Shown here piece by piece: positions 7,548-39,968 of a stretch of 41,227 nucleotides of DNA. This DNA is from a virus. Taxonomy: Duplodnaviria > Heunggongvirae > Uroviricota > Caudoviricetes. The notes under the pieces are model-generated. The model searched no databases. It was not told the DNA's origin and saw only the letters and a list, made by a program, of their open reading frames with translations. The DNA is taken from the IMG/VR virus record IMGVR_UViG_2713896799_000015, positions 1-41,227 of that record. One strand, given 5' to 3'. How positions within the stretch are numbered: position 1 is the stretch's first letter; every line of letters starts with the position of its first letter. The position numbers and the translations under genes are program-made.

Positions 7548-7562
7548 TTACCTTTCAGGTAA
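7548..7562. promoter_or_regulatory. Operator TTACCTTTCAGGTAA (perfect)
   Basis: 15-bp palindrome; the 16-mer ATTACCTTTCAGGTAA is identical to the copy at 25375-25390. Confidence 0.6.
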
Positions 7563-7599: not shown

Positions 7600-7619
7600 T
7601 ACTGTATAAATATACAGTT
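7600..7619. promoter_or_regulatory. LexA (SOS) box
   Basis: TACTGTATAAATATACAGTT matches consensus TACTGTATATATATACAGTA at 18 of 20 positions; 20 bp upstream of the 7640 ATG. Confidence 0.75.
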
Positions 7620-7639
7620 ATTGCATGGAGAAGATTAAG

Positions 7640-7897
7640 ATGCAGCAGTATCACTATCCACTGGAAGACGGATTTACCGAAAGGATTCACACGCCGGGAG
7701 GCGTCAGGTCACTGGTGGAGGGATCGCACTTGATGAAATTACTCCGGGATCTCGATAAGGATGGATTTAATGTCGATGGCCCACTTGCCGAACTGACTGC
7801 ACTGATTAACTACGTCACCAGCTCACAGATGTCTATGCGGGATCTGCAAACACATCTCGACTATTGTGCCGAACAATTACGAAAACAAACCCGGTAA
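7640..7897 (+). CDS. Small antirepressor-like protein (stand-alone homolog of Ant C-terminal domain)
   Basis: GGAG 9 nt upstream of ATG; aligns with the last ~85 residues of the 312-aa Ant (shared YxYPL, IHxPxGV, LMKLL, DG, AELT, RDxQTH). Confidence 0.55.
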   Translation: MQQYHYPLEDGFTERIHTPGGVRSLVEGSHLMKLLRDLDKDGFNVDGPLAELTALINYVTSSQMSMRDLQTHLDYCAEQLRKQTR

Positions 7898-7921: not shown

Positions 7922-7933
7922 GTGACATGTCAC
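7922..7933. repeat. Palindrome GTGACATGTCAC, copy 1 of 3
   Basis: Perfect 12-bp palindrome 1 nt from the hairpin; same 12-mer at 26364 and 28628. Confidence 0.7.
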
Positions 7934-17108: not shown

Positions 17109-19579
17109 CAGAATCCCCCAACAGTAAGGCGAGGAATAACGGCAAGAACAGACAGCGGCAACGGGTCAAGCTGACGGATTTTTACACGCCCGTTTTTGCC
17201 CCAGTTACTGTCCAGTTTCACTTCTACTTTTCCGGTAGCATCATCAACAGGATCATCGTAGAACTCGAATTCACGCTGTGGATATTCGTACCATTTACCG
17301 CCGGGCGTAGTCGCCCAGATGCCGCGACTGGCATTCACAACCAGAGTAACGGACGGGATCACCTGTTTTTTGTCCAGCAGCGTTTCCTGTCCGTTAATGT
17401 TGATATCCAGTGTTTCGAATTCAGCAGTTATTGGCAGGCCGATGTGCACTACAGCCCCCGGAGATTCCAGCGTGACGGCACCTCCGGAAACCACTTTCTG
17501 TGGTTCCACGTTCGCATCAGAGAGGATGTTTACGGTCTGACCTTCAAGATGAGACAAGCCGCCAAATGCCCGGCGCGCCATCTGCCAGTTCGTGGTGGCC
17601 ACATTCCTGAGGGATGGCGGGACGTTCCTGTTAGCACGAACCACTACAGCGGTGTTGCTGGTTACAGAAATAATGTCGCAACGTAATTCTTTTGACACTT
17701 CATCGCCAGTATCGGGAACAGTTCCGGTATAAGGGAACTGTAGTTGCGCACCGACATCACTACTGGTGAAGTACGCACCACCAGAAACACTGATTGTATA
17801 TTCCGCGCGGTAATCCCATTCGCCAGAACCACCAGTGATTGTCATCGTTCTGTCAGACGTATTTCTTCCATCATAGCTAAGGCCAGAATCAACAAAGAAA
17901 GCGTCTTCATCGCTGGTAAATAAACGGCTGGACAGCCGTTCGATGTATCTCACTGTTTGCCCGTTAACGGTTCGGTTAACGACGAAATACACCGCATCTT
18001 CATTGCCTTCGCTGATACTGCATGTGCTTTCATATTTTCCGGTACTGGATTGTGGTGCCCATGCAAAAACCTGCTGATCACGCAAATAGGTCATCACCAG
18101 TAATTTACCGTCATCACGAATGCAGAAGGCACTGGAGTAAGGGACAATCGAGAAGCACCAGTCAACAATGCTGTGCTTCTGAAAAAGATGATTGGCAAGG
18201 ATGGTCAGGTCGTTCCCCTGATAGCCGTCAACATCGAATGAGTAGGCCAGATCACGGACAACGCTGCCTTTCTCCTGGACGAACAGAGCAATATTCGCCA
18301 CAGCAATTGGTGGGACGTTGCTTGAGCCATTTGATCCCTGAGAGCTGAATGCAAATGATGATGGGGTTAACACTTTGTTCTGGTCGCCAGTGATGACGTA
18401 CTCACCTCCGGAAGTCAGCGCCACCAGCGAACCAACATCAATCAGGTGGCGGATCTCATTAACCTGACGCCCGGCATAGGTGTAGATAATTCTGTCGTCA
18501 TCCTGCGTAGGATTGCTTTTGCCAAAATCCTTATAATCCCCGGTACGGCTGGCCCAGATAGTCTGAGGGAACGCGGTCGATGCGGCGAAGTAAAGACGTT
18601 GTTGATAATAAACAACAGTGCCAGGATAACCATTAACACTGTTCCAGGCATATTTAGCCCATTTATAGCTGGCATTATCCTCGCCAACTACCTGCGAAGG
18701 GATATAGGAAATCACCTCAGCAGTTGCAGTAGTGCCATTTGCAGCAGTGATACGGGCAATGCCAAAACCACTGTGCAGATATTCCCACTCAATGCCAGTA
18801 TCATCATCACCGGATCCGCCCCAGCCATCCCATGATGTGCCTTCTGTATGCGAAGGGCGCAAAGTACCTGTTTTGCCTGCTGTAACGGCGCGATAGTAGT
18901 TACTGTCTGCACGGCGAATATCGCCAATCGACGTACTCTTACTGGTTTCCCATACCGGTACTGAATCCACTGCAGGCTGTTCCAGATAGAACAATTTGCC
19001 TACCTGCTCCGCGCCAAAAATAGAGGCGCTTGCCGTTAACGTAATTGTCCCGGTGCTGGCGCTGGCATAAACCGTCACTGACTCATCAATATTGATATCT
19101 TCAAATGGCCCGTTCTTCGTTACCACATCAACCAGTTGCCAGTTGTCATGCGCATAGCGGCGCAGCTCTTTCGGCGGGTATGCCGGATGAACCAGCGTAA
19201 GCACGTCGGCGCTTTGCGTGAATTTAATTCGGAACAGATCGGCTTCAGTATATGGCGTGGCAATTTCATAAATAACATTGCTGCTGTTCAGCACCAACGC
19301 ACCATCTTTGATAACGCGCATGTACTGGTGTCCGAACTCCAGAGCGTAGGTCTGAACCGTCGAGAACTGGAACGGGATCAGGCGGCATTTCCGATTTGGG
19401 TACTTGGCGGCACCGACAAAACGCGTACCAGGTCGATTCTCAACGCCGCCATACTGCCGCACGATAAAGTTATCGCACTTGCGCAATGCCACCTGGTACT
19501 TCGCCATGTCGATACGACCGTACAACGACGGTCCAATCTCACCACCGGCAAAGCTGGGCTGGATCCAACTGATAGCCAT
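17108..19579 (-). CDS. Tail tubular protein B (nozzle)
   Basis: 823 aa, size and position match T7 gp12. Confidence 0.55.
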   Translation of the reverse strand: MAISWIQPSFAGGEIGPSLYGRIDMAKYQVALRKCDNFIVRQYGGVENRPGTRFVGAAKYPNRKCRLIPFQFSTVQTYALEFGHQYMRVIKDGALVLNSSNVIYEIATPYTEADLFRIKFTQSADVLTLVHPAYPPKELRRYAHDNWQLVDVVTKNGPFEDINIDESVTVYASASTGTITLTASASIFGAEQVGKLFYLEQPAVDSVPVWETSKSTSIGDIRRADSNYYRAVTAGKTGTLRPSHTEGTSWDGWGGSGDDDTGIEWEYLHSGFGIARITAANGTTATAEVISYIPSQVVGEDNASYKWAKYAWNSVNGYPGTVVYYQQRLYFAASTAFPQTIWASRTGDYKDFGKSNPTQDDDRIIYTYAGRQVNEIRHLIDVGSLVALTSGGEYVITGDQNKVLTPSSFAFSSQGSNGSSNVPPIAVANIALFVQEKGSVVRDLAYSFDVDGYQGNDLTILANHLFQKHSIVDWCFSIVPYSSAFCIRDDGKLLVMTYLRDQQVFAWAPQSSTGKYESTCSISEGNEDAVYFVVNRTVNGQTVRYIERLSSRLFTSDEDAFFVDSGLSYDGRNTSDRTMTITGGSGEWDYRAEYTISVSGGAYFTSSDVGAQLQFPYTGTVPDTGDEVSKELRCDIISVTSNTAVVVRANRNVPPSLRNVATTNWQMARRAFGGLSHLEGQTVNILSDANVEPQKVVSGGAVTLESPGAVVHIGLPITAEFETLDININGQETLLDKKQVIPSVTLVVNASRGIWATTPGGKWYEYPQREFEFYDDPVDDATGKVEVKLDSNWGKNGRVKIRQLDPLPLSVLAVIPRLTVGGF

Positions 19580-25353: not shown

Positions 25354-25390
25354 TTGACATTTAACGCGTGAATTATTACCTTTCAGGTAA
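25354..25390 (+). promoter_or_regulatory. Promoter-like TTGACA plus operator TTACCTTTCAGGTAA (25376-25390)
   Basis: TTGACA at 25354-25359; perfect operator copy begins 17 bp later, upstream of the tRNA unit. Confidence 0.45.
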
Positions 25391-25987: not shown

Positions 25988-26359
25988 ATGAACGACAAGC
26001 AAATCGAAAAAGAAATCGTTGAGAAAGGCAAAACGGCACCGCGCGTTACGCCAGACCATATCGAAGGAATTATTGCTCAGGAGGCATATTTCACAGCAGA
26101 AGATGGTGCCTTTGGCAAAGCCATAAAAGCGAAACATACTGGCGGAGAGGTAAACTACCAGCCGCACGAATCACTTTCTCTGCTGACGTTCTGCGTCCTG
26201 GTGCTGCGCAACGGCTTCACCGTCACCGGAGAGAGCGCCTGTGCAAGCCCGGAAAACTTTGATGCAGAAATTGGTCGGAAGATTGCCCGGCAGAATGCTG
26301 TAAACAAAATCTGGATGCTCGAAGGTTACTTGCTGAAGCAGAAGCTAAGCGAGCAATAA
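25988..26359 (+). CDS. Small phage protein, possibly Gp49/Sf6-gp66-like family
   Basis: 123 aa, AAGGTGAG RBS; family call is from recalled motif resemblance only. Confidence 0.4.
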   Translation: MNDKQIEKEIVEKGKTAPRVTPDHIEGIIAQEAYFTAEDGAFGKAIKAKHTGGEVNYQPHESLSLLTFCVLVLRNGFTVTGESACASPENFDAEIGRKIARQNAVNKIWMLEGYLLKQKLSEQ

Positions 26360-26363
26360 CACC

Positions 26364-26375
26364 GTGACATGTCAC
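26364..26375. repeat. Palindrome GTGACATGTCAC, copy 2 of 3
   Basis: Perfect 12-mer 5 nt upstream of the 26381-26406 terminator. Confidence 0.7.
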
Positions 26376-26449: not shown

Positions 26450-27925
26450 TTAAGCATAGGGATCGTAATCTGTGATGGCCTTGCCTTGCTGGTTCTGCTG
26501 CCCGGGAATTCGCAGACGCTTCGACACAGGGAACGCAAACGTCAGCAGTAGCGCATCGCCTTTACCAGGCGAACGCCCAAGCCGCTCCTTGATATCTTCC
26601 TTCGGTTCGATAACGATTTTACCGTCCACTCGAACTTTGTACTCTGCCGCCGACAGATCGTCCGCTGTTTCCTGGTCATCCAGCATCCCGCCCAGCCTCA
26701 GCCATGTCTTGCATGAGTTGAACATCTCCCCACGCTTGTTGAGCATCTGCTGGTCAGTAGACGCGCCACCGAACGGAACAAGTTGCCATGTGCGCCCCCA
26801 ACCGTCACCGATTGACTTCAGACCGGTACCGTAACCAAAGTCGATGAACACTGCGTCAGCCTGATACAGGTCTTCAAAGTCAGCGATACGCTTCGCCATA
26901 ATCAGATCGTCGGTAGTCTTGTTGCCAGTCCACAGCACCTTACTGTGTAGCCCCTGCCGCAGGTATATCACCGCGTCATCAACGCCTGAATATGCCGGGT
27001 CAACACCGATTATCACCGGAGCATGCGCCACCTGCGCAGCGGTTACCACCCGTTTCATTGCCTCATCAGTAAGACCGGTAGGGATAAACTGCAATTCAGA
27101 TGCATCAGGGAATATGCCGCGCACACGGATTTTAACGAAGTCGCTGTCTTCCCCGTAGTCATCAACCCATTTCTGCAACTGCTGTTTGTTAGTGCCTTCC
27201 ACCGTCCGGCTGTCAATCTGCGCAGTTTTCCAGCGGTGTTTATATTTGCGGAAACATTCACGGAATCGCCCGGTATTACGCGTCGGGTTTCCGAACGCCA
27301 CCCAGATAATCTCAGTGTCTTCGTCCGTTAGCGCACCTTCGGCAACTTCCCACACCAGATCCGCAATGTTCGACGCTTCATCGAATACCACGATGATGCG
27401 TTTGCGCTCGTTGTGTAGTCCGGCGAATGCCTCAGTGTTGTGCTCAGACCAAGGGATTGCGTCAGCTCGCCACCGCTTGTCGTGCCCAGGATCATTGCTG
27501 TACATCGCGGTAGCGGTACAGGTAAACCAGTCTTTCGTGATAGCAAGGTTCGACCACTTGATAATTTCCGGCCAGGTCTTCGTTCGTAGCTGGTTGTCGG
27601 TGTTGGCGGTCACCACGACCTTACAATCCTCGCAAGTGGACATGCCCCAGTTGATCAGCATTGAGATGAATGCGGATTTACCAATACCGTGACCAGAAGC
27701 GCGTGCCAGCATAAGCGGCTGATAGCGCGTCTCTGGATTCTGCAGGTGATCACGTATCTCTCGGAACGCATCAGCCTGCCACTGACGTGGGCCGGTGGCA
27801 TGTGCCAGTTCAGTCCCCTCTTCCCCCCACGGGAACGCATAGAGGGCATAGCCAAGCGGATCGTGAGTGAACCCTGCAATATCCTCGATCAACTGCTCTT
27901 CAGGAGATAACGCTGTATCTGTCAC
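26450..27925 (-). CDS. Terminase large subunit
   Basis: Walker A GHGIGKS near N-terminus, 491 aa, 4-nt overlap with small subunit gene. Confidence 0.8.
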   Translation of the reverse strand: MTDTALSPEEQLIEDIAGFTHDPLGYALYAFPWGEEGTELAHATGPRQWQADAFREIRDHLQNPETRYQPLMLARASGHGIGKSAFISMLINWGMSTCEDCKVVVTANTDNQLRTKTWPEIIKWSNLAITKDWFTCTATAMYSNDPGHDKRWRADAIPWSEHNTEAFAGLHNERKRIIVVFDEASNIADLVWEVAEGALTDEDTEIIWVAFGNPTRNTGRFRECFRKYKHRWKTAQIDSRTVEGTNKQQLQKWVDDYGEDSDFVKIRVRGIFPDASELQFIPTGLTDEAMKRVVTAAQVAHAPVIIGVDPAYSGVDDAVIYLRQGLHSKVLWTGNKTTDDLIMAKRIADFEDLYQADAVFIDFGYGTGLKSIGDGWGRTWQLVPFGGASTDQQMLNKRGEMFNSCKTWLRLGGMLDDQETADDLSAAEYKVRVDGKIVIEPKEDIKERLGRSPGKGDALLLTFAFPVSKRLRIPGQQNQQGKAITDYDPYA

Positions 27926-28518
27926 TGATTACCATCCTGACGTTCTTTGAGTCGCTTCCTGGCTGCCGCTATGCGATCAGCAATTGTCACATTCACATTA
28001 ACATCCAGGCGTTCTTTGAACGCGTTGACGTCGACGTGCTTACCAATCAGTTCGAGGTTCTTCACCTTGTCAGGCCATTTAATTTTTTTGAGGATTGTCT
28101 CTATCGAATCCTCGTTCATGTTCATGATGGTCGATGACAGATCAAAGCCACTAAGCGTAGTGCGCCAGATTTTCGGCCACTCGCGGATTGGCTTAAGGCT
28201 CCCATCGTCGTTGAGGATGTCGATCACGTCCATCTGGTCGATCTCCACCAGGCGCATGAGAACGTAATCAGCACTGACGCGCATTCGTTTGTTGCGCTCC
28301 TCCATCAACTCGGCAATCCGTTTTTGAATGCGTTCATCGCGCATCATGACACTGGCTTTAACTGCCGCTGTATTTGGGGAGAATCCTGCGTTAATCGCTG
28401 CCTGAGTCTGGTTTTCAGGCGTTTTGATGTATGACTGGCAATAAGCCTCCTGCATTGCTGTTAGTGGCTTAAATTGCGTTGATTTGCGTTTATAGGTTTT
28501 AGGTTCAGCAGGCATCAT
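27922..28518 (-). CDS. Terminase small subunit
   Basis: Start taken at MMPAEPK (28518); the longer ORF's N-terminal extension lies over a DNA repeat region and is unlikely to be translated. Confidence 0.55.
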   Translation of the reverse strand: MMPAEPKTYKRKSTQFKPLTAMQEAYCQSYIKTPENQTQAAINAGFSPNTAAVKASVMMRDERIQKRIAELMEERNKRMRVSADYVLMRLVEIDQMDVIDILNDDGSLKPIREWPKIWRTTLSGFDLSSTIMNMNEDSIETILKKIKWPDKVKNLELIGKHVDVNAFKERLDVNVNVTIADRIAAARKRLKERQDGNQ

Positions 28519-28560
28519 AACCACCGTGGTAATAGTTACCGTTGTGGTAATAGTACCATG

Positions 28561-28587
28561 CAAAATAAAGCCGCCATAGTTGGCGGC
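28561..28587 (-). terminator. Minus-strand terminator just upstream of terminase genes
   Basis: On the minus strand GCCGCCA-ACTA-TGGCGGC followed by TTTATTTTG. Confidence 0.55.
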
Positions 28588-28627
28588 AGTATTCAAAACC
28601 ATCAAATTCATCATGCATAATCTACTC

Positions 28628-28639
28628 GTGACATGTCAC
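28628..28639. repeat. Palindrome GTGACATGTCAC, copy 3 of 3
   Basis: Perfect 12-mer overlapping the stop of the 28636-28977 gene, 41 nt upstream (minus sense) of the terminator. Confidence 0.7.
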
Positions 28640-28977
28640 ACTATTAATTTCGTTTCATGCCAGCCTTTAGTCACCCAGCATTGTGAGTCACCATTACACG
28701 GACATGAATTAACTGGAACTCTCTCGCCGCACTTACCGCAACGTTTTCTAATGATCGATTTTATACGCCCGCGCACGCGTGCATCATCCTGGCGGATCAG
28801 TAACGCTATATACTCACAAAATTCGTAAGGCGCACGCCCGGGGCGACGCGCAGCACAGTTACGCTCAAGCATTTCAATTTCCTGAGCATCAAGCACAATT
28901 TCCAGCTTACGCACACCAGATGCAGCTTGTCTGGCTCTCTGAGCGGCTTTGCGCTCTGCTGCTGATTTAGCCATCAA
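28636..28977 (-). CDS. Small Cys-rich protein (possible zinc-binding regulator)
   Basis: Basic N-terminus, C-terminal CGKCG...CPCNGDSQC cluster; last gene before the terminator preceding terminase. Confidence 0.4.
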   Translation of the reverse strand: MMAKSAAERKAAQRARQAASGVRKLEIVLDAQEIEMLERNCAARRPGRAPYEFCEYIALLIRQDDARVRGRIKSIIRKRCGKCGERVPVNSCPCNGDSQCWVTKGWHETKLIV

Positions 28978-32262: not shown

Positions 32263-32607
32263 TCAGAACTTTTCGATGTTCCAGCCACCACCTGCTTTCT
32301 TTGGTTTAACCGTTACCCCGATGATTCGGAACGGATACTGATCTGCGGCGACTTTGGTTTTCACCCTGGCGTCGTCGGTCCAGAAACCTTTCACTTCGTG
32401 CAGTTCCATCTCGCCGGTGGCGAGCATCACAGCAAAATCGGGCGTATAGAACGTGTTGTCAGCTAACCGCAACTTGATACCCTCAAATCGATACCAGACG
32501 ATTTCTCCTGCACGTTTACGCAGCTCAAGGTGCTGGCAATACGCAGATTCTGTTTTGTTCATCTGGCCTGTTTTGAGTCGACCAAGAGCCTGTATCTGTT
32601 TTCTCAT
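32263..32607 (-). CDS. DUF1064-type phage protein
   Basis: 114 aa, common small protein of lambdoid replication regions (family call by recollection). Confidence 0.45.
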   Translation of the reverse strand: MRKQIQALGRLKTGQMNKTESAYCQHLELRKRAGEIVWYRFEGIKLRLADNTFYTPDFAVMLATGEMELHEVKGFWTDDARVKTKVAADQYPFRIIGVTVKPKKAGGGWNIEKF

Positions 32608-32610
32608 GAT

Positions 32611-32688
32611 TTACCCCTTAGGTAATTAAAAACCACATAAGACATGAAATCAATAGAAATTAGAACATTTTATTACCTACAAGGTAAT
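32611..32688. promoter_or_regulatory. Two perfect operators (TTACCCCTTAGGTAA 32611-32625; TTACCTACAAGGTAA 32674-32688)
   Basis: First copy starts 4 bp from the ATG of the 32607 gene and covers its RBS; both lie in a 117-bp gap between same-strand genes. Confidence 0.55.
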
Positions 32689-32724: not shown

Positions 32725-33525
32725 TTACTTGATAAATCCTGCCGCCTTTCCCCGCCTGTATTCCTCCATCAGCCACTGCGCCGGTGTTATTCCCCCAAGG
32801 GTGGCGGCGTTAGGCATGCACCCGAAACTTCGCCCTGGTGGATGGTAAACGTCTCTCCCTGTGTCCGGAGGTGTACTCATGGGCTCTGGCTTTGCCTGTA
32901 TGCTGATCACCGGATCGGGTATCTGCTGTCCGGAAGCCACCTTTTTCGCCCAATCATCGAGCAGCCTGCGCGCGTGTTTCTCAACCTCAATCTCGCTAAG
33001 CTGGCGCTGATACATTGCACGGCGGGTATCACATACGACCCAGTACATAACCGGATGTCGCCACGGGAATCTTTCGGGACCACCAGGATATAAACTTTTT
33101 TCCTTGCTGTACCGATGAAACTCCGCCATCACATCGTCAATGGTGACGCCAAGAACCATCTTGCTGTCTTTACACCACTTGATGAATTGCCCTGGCGACG
33201 GCCAGAACGGAGATTCACTGGCGCGGGCGTGGCGCATACCAGCAGAAACCTGTTCACGGGTTCGGATCCCACTTTCAGCAAACGCAGCAATCCACTGCTG
33301 TTTTGCAGCGACTTCCTGCTCTGGCGTCTTCAGGTTGGTTACCACTGCCGCCGGAAACAGTTGTTTCAGCTGTTTAAAAAGGGCATCAACAAGCCTCTCT
33401 GCTGACATGTTCACCACATTGTCATTGTTGACGTACTGATGCTCATAACCTGACATGCGAGAAAGGGCTTCTCCGTCACGGTTTTGTATCGCGGTAAAAA
33501 CGTTGTTCACAAGAAATCCTCCCAT
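32725..33525 (-). CDS. Replication protein, lambda P-like (helicase loader candidate)
   Basis: Follows the initiator gene with overlap; family call by recollection. Confidence 0.45.
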   Translation of the reverse strand: MGGFLVNNVFTAIQNRDGEALSRMSGYEHQYVNNDNVVNMSAERLVDALFKQLKQLFPAAVVTNLKTPEQEVAAKQQWIAAFAESGIRTREQVSAGMRHARASESPFWPSPGQFIKWCKDSKMVLGVTIDDVMAEFHRYSKEKSLYPGGPERFPWRHPVMYWVVCDTRRAMYQRQLSEIEVEKHARRLLDDWAKKVASGQQIPDPVISIQAKPEPMSTPPDTGRDVYHPPGRSFGCMPNAATLGGITPAQWLMEEYRRGKAAGFIK

Positions 33526-34322
33526 GCTTCAGGGCTGTTCCAGTGCGGAACGTTGTTATCAGGTAATGTTGATTGCTTCTGTCTGCTAATCTGCAGCCGC
33601 CTTGCCAGCTTCTGCTCCCACTGTGCCTGATGGTATGCCTTACCCTCAGCCATCCAGTAAATTCTGAACTCTGCAAGTTCCTGTGCCGTTGGCAGACTGT
33701 CCAGGTAGATCCCCTGCAATGAGCTTTTCCGAAGAAAGTCATCTGATGGCTGCCATTGTTCATGCATGACAAATTTGCCTAATTGCCCTGGCCCACCAGG
33801 AGGAACAAAGTTATTCATCACGGCGTTGTTTGCTCCGGGGTCATGAGGCACAGAATCCCCGCTTTTTGTCCTGCTCTCCCTCTCTTGGTTAAATGACTGG
33901 TTATATGACTGGTTCTGGATCCCGTTTTTGGGATCATTCAACATCCCGTTTTTGGGATCATTCAACATCCCGTTTTTGGGTATATTCCCGTTTTCGGTAA
34001 CATTACCGTTTTCGGGTTCATTACCCCCTTCCCGGTTGCCTTTAATGTTCCCGTTTTTGGTTATATTAAGAGAGAAAACCCGCACTCTTTTCGTCGCTCC
34101 CTTTCTCTCTCCGGTATCTGAAATAAGCCCCATTTTCATGAGCGATATAAGCCCGGCCTGCACGGTTTTTTTATTCAGGCAAGTGTCTTTAACGAGGCGT
34201 TCTATGCTGGGGTAGCAGAGGTTATATTCATCGGCTCTGTCAGCCATCGAGAGCAGTATGAGCTTTAATGATGAGCTACCTGGATCTGTCTCCCAGGCCC
34301 AATCTGTTGCATGTCTGCTCAT
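33507..34322 (-). CDS. Replication initiator, lambda O-like, with internal iterons
   Basis: N-terminal winged-helix-like region; central NGxLNDPK peptide repeats encoded by DNA direct repeats. Confidence 0.55.
   Translation of the reverse strand: MSRHATDWAWETDPGSSSLKLILLSMADRADEYNLCYPSIERLVKDTCLNKKTVQAGLISLMKMGLISDTGERKGATKRVRVFSLNITKNGNIKGNREGGNEPENGNVTENGNIPKNGMLNDPKNGMLNDPKNGIQNQSYNQSFNQERESRTKSGDSVPHDPGANNAVMNNFVPPGGPGQLGKFVMHEQWQPSDDFLRKSSLQGIYLDSLPTAQELAEFRIYWMAEGKAYHQAQWEQKLARRLQISRQKQSTLPDNNVPHWNSPEAWEDFL
33919..34060. repeat. Iteron array (probable origin of replication)
   Basis: ATCCCGTTTTTGGGATCATTCAAC twice in tandem (33919-33942, 33943-33966), then four degenerate CCCGTTTT(T/C)GG copies. 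Confidence 0.65.
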
Positions 34323-34688: not shown

Positions 34689-34919
34689 TCATGAGTAGAA
34701 GAAGTATGCCAATTCTGCTTTTGAGCGCAGCCATTGTCTTGATTTACAGGCTTTAAAAAGCCCATCCATCAATACCTTACCTGGCATTTTGCGCTTACCT
34801 GTTAAGTGAGTCTGGATATAGTGACTCGTCGTTCCGGCTTCCTGTGCGAAGGCTTCACGCTCATCCGGAGTAAGTGCAAGCCAGTGCTTTTTGAAATCGA
34901 AATGTCCGTTATCGCTCAT
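34689..34919 (-). CDS. Cro-like HTH regulator
   Basis: 76 aa, divergent from the repressor, reads toward replication genes; a hairpin (34649-34666) follows it. Confidence 0.5.
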   Translation of the reverse strand: MSDNGHFDFKKHWLALTPDEREAFAQEAGTTSHYIQTHLTGKRKMPGKVLMDGLFKACKSRQWLRSKAELAYFFYS

Positions 34920-34955: not shown

Positions 34956-35019
34956 TCACCTATAAGGTAACAAAAATCAAGGATAGTTACCCATGAGGTG
35001 CATTTACCTGTTGGGTAAT
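34956..35019. promoter_or_regulatory. Operator cluster (OR-like): three sites between cro-like and repressor genes
   Basis: TCACCTATAAGGTAA (34956-34970), TTACCCATGAGGTGC (34987-35001), TTACCTGTTGGGTAA (35005-35019). Confidence 0.6.
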
Positions 35020-35073: not shown

Positions 35074-35658
35074 ATGAAAAGTATCCAGGACGTCCGCAGG
35101 CAAAATCTCAACGACTTGATCGACCGTGAATTCAATGGTGTTCAGACGCGGATGGCTGAAAAACTTGGAACTCAGGCAAATCTGGTAAACCGCTGGGCTC
35201 TTGGCAAGAAGGTTATCGGCGACCAGGTTGCGCGAAAAATTGAAGCTGCCGCCAATAAACCCCGTAACTGGCTTGATATCGATCGCTCGCTTTCTCAGGA
35301 AGGTTTTCAGCCTGTCGGACCAAGCGACATTGGTCAACTGGCGGCTCACAACCTGGAACGCTGGATGAGCGAAAGCCGCGACCTTTCAACGCAGGGAAAA
35401 CTTCACCGCGCATCCGGCGTCGCCCAGGTGACAATCAGCCGCCTGTTAAACAATGAGGTCAGCGTTTCCATTTCCACCCTGGAGAATGTTGCATCCGCAT
35501 TCGGGCGTCACGGCTATGAATTACTGATTCACCCGCACGACCCTGCGACTATCAACTATGACCGCTCGCGCTACGCTTTGTTACCCGAAACCGAGAAAGC
35601 AAAGATCGAAAGTTACATTGAATTTGTCATCAACCAGAACGAAAAAAACAAACAATAA
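35074..35658 (+). CDS. Prophage repressor, tandem HTH, no peptidase domain
   Basis: Two XRE-type HTH segments in 194 aa; no S24 Ser/Lys autopeptidase region; flanked by operator clusters. Confidence 0.55.
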   Translation: MKSIQDVRRQNLNDLIDREFNGVQTRMAEKLGTQANLVNRWALGKKVIGDQVARKIEAAANKPRNWLDIDRSLSQEGFQPVGPSDIGQLAAHNLERWMSESRDLSTQGKLHRASGVAQVTISRLLNNEVSVSISTLENVASAFGRHGYELLIHPHDPATINYDRSRYALLPETEKAKIESYIEFVINQNEKNKQ

Positions 35659-35715: not shown

Positions 35716-35792
35716 TTACCTAACAGGTAATTTTTTTAACTCATATCTATTGACATCAAACCAGATACGCATAATTATTACCTCAACGGTAA
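35716..35792. promoter_or_regulatory. Operator pair (OL-like) with TTGACA promoter element between them
   Basis: TTACCTAACAGGTAA (35716-35730) and TTACCTCAACGGTAA (35778-35792); TTGACA at 35750-35755. Confidence 0.6.
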
Positions 35793-39312: not shown

Positions 39313-39968
39313 ACCTATATCAACGCATCAATGGCGCTGACTGGTGCAATATCTTCGTCGTCGGCGATCTGCATGGGTGCTACACGCTGCTGATGAACGA
39401 ACTCGACAAAGTTTCATTCGACCCGGCGCGCGATTTGCTTATTTCCGTTGGTGACCTTGTTGACCGCGGCGCTGAAAACGTCGAATGCCTGGATTTGATT
39501 ACTATGCCGTGGTTCCGAGCTGTTCGTGGCAACCATGAGCAGATGATGCTGGATGCACTGGTCAACGGCGGAAGTTTCGGACATTGGATGTCAAACGGCG
39601 GTGGATGGTGGCACCAACTTGATTCTGAGCAGGATGTGCAACTCAAATACATTCTGCCAAAGGTTACCAACCTCCCGATGATTATCGAACTGGTTACCGG
39701 CAATAAGAAGGTCGTCATCTGCCACGCAGACTACCCGCACAACGAATACGCATTCGATAAGCCAGTACCGGAAGAAATGGTGATATGGAATCGTGAGCGG
39801 GTTAGCGACGCGCAGGACGGTATTGTCTCGGAGATAACCGGTGCCGATTTGTTCATCTTCGGTCATACGCCAGCACATCACCCACTGGTGTATGCAAACC
39901 AAATGTACATCGACACCGGCGCAGTGTTCTGCGGAAATCTGACGCTTACCAAAGTCCAGGAAGGATAG
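39309..39968 (+). CDS. Ser/Thr protein phosphatase (lambda PPase / PrpA-like)
   Basis: GDLHGC, GDLVDRG, GNHE metallophosphatase motifs; ATGA overlap with methylase gene. Confidence 0.7.

Follow-up and report, generated by a model that had tools for sequence, protein, structure and literature searches.

In phage lambda, the late genes depend on antitermination by Q, and we know of no repressor operators at its structural genes. The dispersed repressor sites of P1 and L5 are asymmetric, and the stoperators of L5 act on elongation and in a single orientation. In SPP1, the pac region consists of pacL, pacC, and pacR, arranged around the start of gene 1. For SPC32H, an antirepressor under the control of LexA has reportedly been described. 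According to PMC9638917, the repressor Rep of SPC32H is a tetramer on palindromic DNA sites, from which it is freed by an antirepressor; mycobacteriophage stoperators are described in a further article (PMC9283540). The closest described arrangement is found in Salmonella phage epsilon15, whose RefSeq record (NC_004775.2) contains seven features labeled "protein_bind: repressor," all of the form ATTACC-N5-GGTAAT, with one of them (12-27) located directly 5′ of terS, which starts at position 47.

Here, a stretch of 41,227 nucleotides (IMG/VR virus record IMGVR_UViG_2713896799_000015, positions 1 to 41,227; in the following called the window) was analyzed with a focus on the interval 28519-28639 ahead of its terminase genes. 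An earlier note, made from the sequence alone, had taken this interval as a dense regulatory region and as a candidate late-operon control point or packaging site. The arrangement of operators at terS is as such already known, since the orthologous sites are annotated in epsilon15.

Genomic Context of the Interval

The window originates from a temperate, phiV10/epsilon15-like phage (Uetakevirus). Around the interval it is 97-99% identical to the Escherichia phages vB_EcoP_ZX5, PAS61, TL-2011b, and phiV10, all of them Uetakeviruses, while epsilon15, also a Uetakevirus, is a more remote relative of this region. In the paper on vB_EcoP_ZX5, four promoters were predicted and the interval ahead of terS is not mentioned. 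The genes flanking the interval lie on the minus strand:

26450..27925, minus strand, terL (from the ORF list)
27922..28515, minus strand, terS, 197 aa, Terminase_2 (Pfam PF03592, E 1.6e-29), starting at the second ATG
28591..28618, minus strand, relic of the 3′ end of a small gene (...YDEFDGL-stop), recognized from the upstream sequences of 80 relatives and from ORF translations of two of them (L011, L071)
28638-28636, minus strand, stop codon TGA of the 113-aa gene
28636..28977, minus strand, gp49-like gene, 113 aa, last gene of the early-right operon (PHROG E 1.6e-53)

All conservation counts given below refer to 80 IMG/VR relatives with a TerS that is 83-100% identical. A protein search with TerS listed 120 matches, every one at least 88% identical, and remoter homologs were therefore taken from tblastn searches against phage records. 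The direct upstream neighbor of terS differs among the relatives: in some it is the 113-aa gene, in others an additional gene (77-85 aa), and in still others a gene resembling UmuD. The small gene, of which only the 3′ end is left in the window, is intact in other relatives and placed there between the gp49-like gene and terS; within the relic, the relatives show a length polymorphism of 1 nt. Since the neighbor varies in this way, the operators described in the next section stay with terS across mosaic junctions.

Predicted Repressor Operators at terS and Across the Genome

Two dyads were found by dyad search directly in front of terS:

28536..28550, operator O1, exact TTACC-ACAAC-GGTAA, first direct repeat
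28518..28532, operator O2, TTACC-ACGGT-GGTTA, one mismatch, second direct repeat; overlaps the terS Shine-Dalgarno sequence and the first ATG

The direct repeats that had been reported for 28525-28557 exist: the window contains two copies of the 11-mer GTGGTAATAGT and no more, one at 28526-28536 and the other 18 nt away at 28544-28554. Taken alone, this is a borderline finding, as by our estimate about 0.2-0.5 cases of an identical 11-mer recurring within 50 nt are expected per window. A replication-region protein (33507..34322, minus strand) contains short tandem peptide repeats NGNIPKNGMLNDPKNGMLNDPKNG, which account for most of the short-range repeats in the DNA of the window; such tandem repeats confound an 11-mer shuffle test. 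The unit that is conserved in the relatives is the dyad TATTACC-N5-GGTAAT rather than the direct repeat. An operator of the form GGTAA-N3-TTACC had also been proposed, and this sequence is present at 28528-28540; its geometry was misparsed, however, as it represents the junction between O1 and O2, and the true dyads read TTACC-N5-GGTAA. The core CCACCGTGG noticed at the terminase ribosome-binding site is likewise present (28521-28529) and corresponds to the spacer of O2, which holds the complement of the Shine-Dalgarno sequence GGTGG.

The lack of conservation of the repeats, which the earlier note had named as speaking against its reading, is not seen, as they are kept in 80/80 relatives. O1 is exact in 80/80, and O2 is found with at most one mismatch in 80/80, at a distance from O1 of 18 nt in 77 and of 20 nt in 3 of them. 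An alignment of the 23 distinct sequences shows invariant half-sites and variable spacers. O2 overlaps a Shine-Dalgarno sequence and a start codon, which could account for its conservation, and in Klebsiella phage ST11-OXA245phi3.2 O2 is degenerate.

In the entire window, TTACC-N5-GGTAA with at most one mismatch occurs at 13 sites versus 0.76 expected, a number that was reached in 0/100 shuffles. Besides the two sites at terS, the dyad is thus present at 11 further positions, the immunity region included:

32611 and 32673 (32611-32687), minus strand, two operators bracketing a promoter before a DUF1064/resolvase-like gene (32263..32607)
34689..34919, minus strand, cro-like gene, divergent from the repressor gene
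34956, 34987, and 35004 (34956-35018; spacings of 31 and 17 nt), three-operator cluster between the repressor gene and the cro-like gene
35074..35658, plus strand, HTH repressor gene (Rep), 194 aa, CI-type
35716 and 35778 (35716-35792), two operators 62 nt apart, flanking a TTGACA promoter (PL-like, leftward) behind the terminator of the repressor gene

The remaining dyads are single sites ahead of accessory genes. The layout of the DUF1064 locus resembles that of terS, with a weak terminator, an operator, the hexamers TTGATT-17-TTTAAT, and a second operator touching the ATG, and this architecture is kept in epsilon15 and BUCT554. At another place, a Rep operator (TATTACCTTTCAGGTAA, 7548-7562) is followed by a perfect LexA box (CTGTATAAATATACAG, 7602-7617) upstream of the gene 7625..7897 on the plus strand, the 90-aa product of which has a weak PHROG match to anti-repressors. 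Together, these elements look like the LexA-controlled antirepressor of SPC32H. A further gene on the plus strand (25988..26359; N4 gp49/Sf6 gp66 family) is placed in antisense orientation between terL and the portal cluster. It is equipped with a Rep operator (25376-25390), identical to the site at 7548 and located beside a TTGACA hexamer, and terminates with a copy of the palindrome described below and a terminator.

Rep of the window matches Rep of SPC32H (PDB 5D50) over its full length (residues 1-190, E 4e-42). Its identity to Rep of epsilon15 is only 43%. The half-sites are common to all Uetakeviruses examined (phiV10, epsilon15, BUCT554), which contain 14-15 dyads each at syntenic positions. 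The "repressor" site at 12-27 of epsilon15 is the orthologue of O1, and a second site with one mismatch at position 30 is the counterpart of O2. In contrast, no dyad is found at terS in phages with a TerS that is 48-60% identical but without this Rep. Aeromonas phage 56 contains a single one-mismatch dyad match in 43.5 kb, and no comparable repressor is annotated in this phage. On the basis of these comparisons, O1 and O2 are predicted to be binding sites for the prophage's own repressor Rep.

Terminator, Probable Promoter, and Start of terS

Between the relic and the start of terS, three further elements were identified:

28562..28587, minus strand, intrinsic terminator (terminator scan, RNA fold)
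28550..28558, minus strand, extended -10 element TGgTACTAT without recognizable -35, probable promoter
28521..28525, minus strand, Shine-Dalgarno sequence GGTGG of terS (read from the sequence; invariant columns in the alignment)

The minus-strand terminator that the earlier note had seen was recovered at 28587-28562. It consists of GCCGCCAACTATGGCGGC (28587-28570) followed by TTTATTTTG, with the stem GCCGCC/GGCGGC, the loop AACTAT, and the tail TTTATTTT, and it folds as a hairpin with seven pairs, six of which are G-C. It is present in 77/80 relatives, and in epsilon15 its orthologue is annotated as a rho-independent terminator (39646-39672) at the end of the record. BUCT554 and OXA245phi3.2, as well as 3/80 relatives, have no terminator before terS, which means that early-right transcription can enter terS in these phages and that a separate promoter is not strictly needed there. 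A search for known RNA families over the interval gave no Rfam family at threshold. The best match, RF01401 (rseX; 28563-28647, minus strand), reached 29.6 bits versus a gathering score of 50 (E ~0.06-0.12); it rests mostly on the terminator hairpin and was taken as chance. Aeromonas phage vB_AsaM-56, with a TerS of 59% identity, likewise has an intrinsic terminator ~90 nt ahead of terS (AGCCCTC-TTCG-GAGGGCT and a T-run, within 18450-18565), which is unrelated to the one in the window; a terminator in this place may be a recurrent design.

Directly behind the terminator, the sequence TGgTACTAT is probably an extended -10 promoter element. Across the alignment of the 23 distinct sequences, TG-n-TA-nn-AT differs at its n positions only, the bases T, G, T, A, A, and T being the same throughout, and TGnTAnnAT is found in register in 80/80 relatives. 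The last base of the -10 hexamer is at the same time the first base of O1, and this register between hexamer and operator is the same as for TTGACA-17-AATTAT at the PL-like promoter (35778) and for TTGATT-17-TTTAAT at the DUF1064 gene (32611). The same is true for the PL-like and DUF1064 orthologues in epsilon15 and BUCT554, that is, in three phages in total. As the hexamer's AT also belongs to the extended operator half-site TATTACC, only TG and TA count as independent evidence for a promoter. A scan for consensus promoters called none at 28550..28558, and at a distance of 16-18 bp the best -35 hexamer has 3/6 matches in the epsilon15 and BUCT554 orthologues and, by our own reading, 1/6 in the window. 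Extended -10 promoters of sigma-70 do not require a -35 hexamer. A transcript from this element would start near 28543, in the center of O1, and have a leader of ~28 nt.

The conserved start of terS is the second ATG at 28515, with GGTGG located 5 nt upstream, and it is also the start used in the RefSeq entries of TL-2011b and epsilon15. The first ATG is absent from epsilon15-type sequences and mutated in one relative (L050). A longer ORF of 230 aa (27922..28614, minus strand) translates the repeats as GTITTTVTITTVV / TITTTVTITTVV. A TerS of 230 aa with an N-terminal TTVTITTV was rejected, as a 1-nt indel near 28600 breaks this frame in most relatives and the start conserved instead is the second ATG. 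As listed in the earlier note, the long terS ORF does extend over the interval as such a repeat translation. A reading frame of 36-37 Tyr-rich amino acids (28505..28618, minus strand) was likewise discarded as a leader peptide or small gene: in relative L063, this frame has a stop and no ATG by our own reading, it begins with what is left of the C-terminus of another gene, and the composition of the repeats alone leaves two of the three frames open.

An overlong terS is a widespread annotation error, which is corrected here. The gene is annotated 25-27 residues too long in the RefSeq CDS of phiV10 (41-715) and in protein clusters of 222-224 aa, one of which (P0001 being an example entry) has 1383 members. 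As judged from the conserved start, the additional N-terminus (28516-28614) is an annotation artifact that would correspond to the untranslated leader with terminator and operators.

The Palindrome and the Upstream phrog_536 Gene

The interval ends within the 3′ end of the upstream gene:

28628..28639, perfect 12-bp palindrome GTGACATGTCAC, overlapping the stop codon of the 113-aa gene

Listed in the earlier note as the third copy of a palindrome, this sequence is indeed an exact copy at 28628-28639, with two others at 26364-26375 and 7922-7933 in the window; an exact 12-mer palindrome is expected ~0.0025 times in 41 kb (own arithmetic). It is not an element of the terS region, however, but travels with the upstream gene. 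Within 200 nt upstream of terS, the palindrome occurs in 50/80 relatives. The 113-aa protein belongs to the epsilon15 gp49/N15 gp46 family (phrog_536, "transcriptional regulator"), and of 66 distinct phrog_536 3′ ends, 47 have GTGAC-NN-GTCAC within -1 to +9 nt of the stop codon, with the TGA inside the palindrome in 43 of these 47. The surveyed sequences include L093-L096 and L097-L176. Such a palindrome at the phrog_536 stop was found in the window, in epsilon15, in the lambdoid phage Chlobot, in ZF40, in Pantoea phage AH07, in a P2-like Yersinia phage, and in N15. It is kept despite protein identities down to 34-44%, and its arms are fixed in nucleotides while the last codon and amino acid vary. 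A subgroup of phrog_536 has CTGAC-N7-GTCAG around the stop codon instead.

The number of GTGAC-NN-GTCAC copies per genome is 1-4 versus ~0.04 expected. The window, epsilon15 (L091; 2142, 19517, and 39612), and N15 (L179; 28550, 33237, and 39269) contain three each, and the extra copies in Uetakeviruses are located just 5′ of intrinsic terminators closing two other transcription units. The phrog_536 protein has a basic N-terminus and a Cys4 C-terminus. Sequence searches with the 113-aa protein yielded no match in Pfam or PDB, Pfam was also empty for six family members, and a structure model was poor (pLDDT 66, pTM 0.37), with Foldseek against PDB returning nothing below E = 4.9.

The distribution of the palindrome indicates that it belongs to the upstream phrog_536 gene rather than to terS. 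It is tempting, if speculative, to regard it as the cognate site of the phrog_536 protein, and thus both as a hitherto undescribed regulator-and-site module at the ends of genes and operons. If so, this module might modulate termination, read-through or how strongly the following gene is expressed, with entry into the terS region among its possible targets. This link between palindrome and phrog_536 is the only part of the present analysis that could bring new biology.

Proposed Control Mechanism and Alternative Explanations

Taking the elements together, the interval is probably where the early-right operon gives way to the terS-terL operon, with a terminator, a Rep-controlled promoter, and the terS leader following each other in this order and forming a control point of the terminase operon. 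Read along the minus strand, the last early gene ends first, with its stop codon inside the palindrome of its own module, followed by ~40 nt of relic sequence and the intrinsic terminator, at which early-right transcripts would be halted. The probable extended -10 promoter comes right after the T-run, with O1 beginning at the last base of its hexamer and O2 lying 18 bp beyond O1, over the Shine-Dalgarno sequence and the first ATG. In the lysogen, one Rep tetramer may bridge O1 and O2 and cover the promoter from -7 to about +26. The terminase operon would then be silent, and any polymerase reading past the terminator would be blocked as well. Upon removal of Rep, for which this phage group uses a LexA-controlled antirepressor, the promoter would be freed and give rise to an mRNA with a leader of ~28 nt. 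The proposal of a late-operon control point made in the earlier note is thus supported by a terminator, two predicted repressor operators, and a probable promoter just before terS. Should the proposed mechanism apply, the immunity repressor of this phage group would act directly at the terminase operon, and the late genes would not be left to a lambda-style cascade. Such knowledge would be useful for annotating and engineering prophages and reporter phages of the phiV10/epsilon15 type and for predicting what a lysogen silences.

A serious alternative, even if we hold it to be rather unlikely, is that the Rep sites are real but accompanied by no promoter, so that terS and terL are transcribed by read-through from the early-right operon and Rep halts elongation in a stoperator-like manner. 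The absence of a -35 element would fit such a pure roadblock, as would the position of the operators, located beyond wherever transcription could start and reaching over the ribosome-binding site, and the terminator-less relatives, in which terS is located directly behind an upstream gene. Nevertheless, the TG and TA of the extended -10 element are invariant amid varying neighbors, and its register to the operator matches that of two canonical promoters in three phages. In addition, a strong terminator precedes the sites in 77/80 relatives, and the terminase genes would remain untranscribed unless it is overcome. Far less probable is the packaging site that had been suggested as the other option for the interval, with the repeats binding the small terminase subunit as do pacL and pacR around the start of terS in SPP1. 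TerS indeed belongs to the SPP1-type Terminase_2 family, the repeats adjoin its gene, and several GenBank records of the group begin in or beside the interval. However, the dyad is spread over the genome, with 11 other loci including the immunity region, is an annotated repressor site in epsilon15, and is missing before terS where TerS is homologous but Rep absent, so that a packaging function is unsupported. The starts of the records track the ends of genes and terminators (in phiV10 after the upstream stop codon, in epsilon15 after the T-run), which suggests to us a convention rather than mapped ends; a search for literature on the packaging ends of this phage group found no paper.

Control at the level of RNA would work by leader hairpins (ACCAC/GUGGU and GGUAA/UUACC) that mask the Shine-Dalgarno sequence, so that terS would be regulated in translation or by attenuation, with a possible link to the 36-37-aa ORF running across terminator and repeats. 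The minimum-energy fold of 28513-28640 (minus strand) does pair these segments and mask GGUGG with a z-score of -4.2, and the short ORF (28505..28618, minus strand) is open in many relatives. Two neighboring palindromic operators, however, will pair in this manner in any case, and the paired positions are all invariant, so that no covariation is seen. The same dyads also occur in promoter regions in both orientations, the proposed start inside O1 would remove the outer stem, and no Rfam family was found at threshold. As for the short ORF, its frame in L063 has, as judged by eye, a TAG just before the repeats and no later ATG, and its upstream part is the 3′ relic of a gene seen in other relatives. 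We thus consider RNA control highly improbable. Just as little credit can be given to a switch resembling lambda Q, for which a promoter at the palindrome would produce a short transcript ending at the terminator, and the 113-aa protein, bound to the palindrome, would permit read-through into terS. Promoter-like hexamers (TTAATA-17-TAGATT and GTGACA-18-CATGAT) flank the palindrome, which is tied to the upstream regulator-like gene and followed by the terminator ~40 nt downstream, and the weak rseX-like match (28563-28647) covers this part. Still, the stretch between palindrome and terminator is a gene relic, which is intact in other relatives and differs among them, the hexamers are by our own reading not conserved in epsilon15, and elsewhere the palindrome leads into the ribosome-binding site of the next gene with no terminator in between. 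The 113-aa protein has no match to Q proteins in Pfam, PDB or fold searches, in N15 and ZF40 a separate Q-like gene exists in addition to the phrog_536 homolog, and the rseX score of 29.6 bits stays well below 50. For these reasons, a Rep-controlled promoter behind a terminator is the explanation we prefer.

Comparison With Known Systems

With epsilon15 and SPC32H, the window shares the dyad ATTACC-N5-GGTAAT at matching syntenic places, including a site 5′ of terS with a terminator just before it, as well as a homologous repressor and a LexA box before an antirepressor-like gene. Compared to the record of epsilon15, in which one site is marked at terS, a weaker second site is present 18 bp further on in both the window and epsilon15, and the record has no feature for the extended -10 element. 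The similarity to OR and OL of lambda comprises dyad sites of 15-19 bp, two to three of which lie adjacent to each other over divergent promoters and between repressor and cro-like genes, and co-operative binding by a repressor oligomer, which for the window is predicted from what PMC9638917 reports on Rep of SPC32H. Unlike in lambda, the operators of the window extend beyond the immunity region to terS, the DUF1064 gene, the antirepressor-like gene, and further accessory genes.

The pac region of SPP1 is similar with regard to repeated short boxes and promoters upstream of or overlapping the start of a terS of the Terminase_2 family, but the boxes in the window are predicted operators of the immunity repressor and not specific to TerS. 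Finally, the C1 operators of P1 and the stoperators of L5 are comparable in that the sites of a single immunity repressor, a dozen or more, are dispersed over the genome, some of them before late or structural genes. In contrast to those, the sites in the window are symmetric and, at three loci, keep a constant spacing to a -10 hexamer, and this combination points to a control of initiation.
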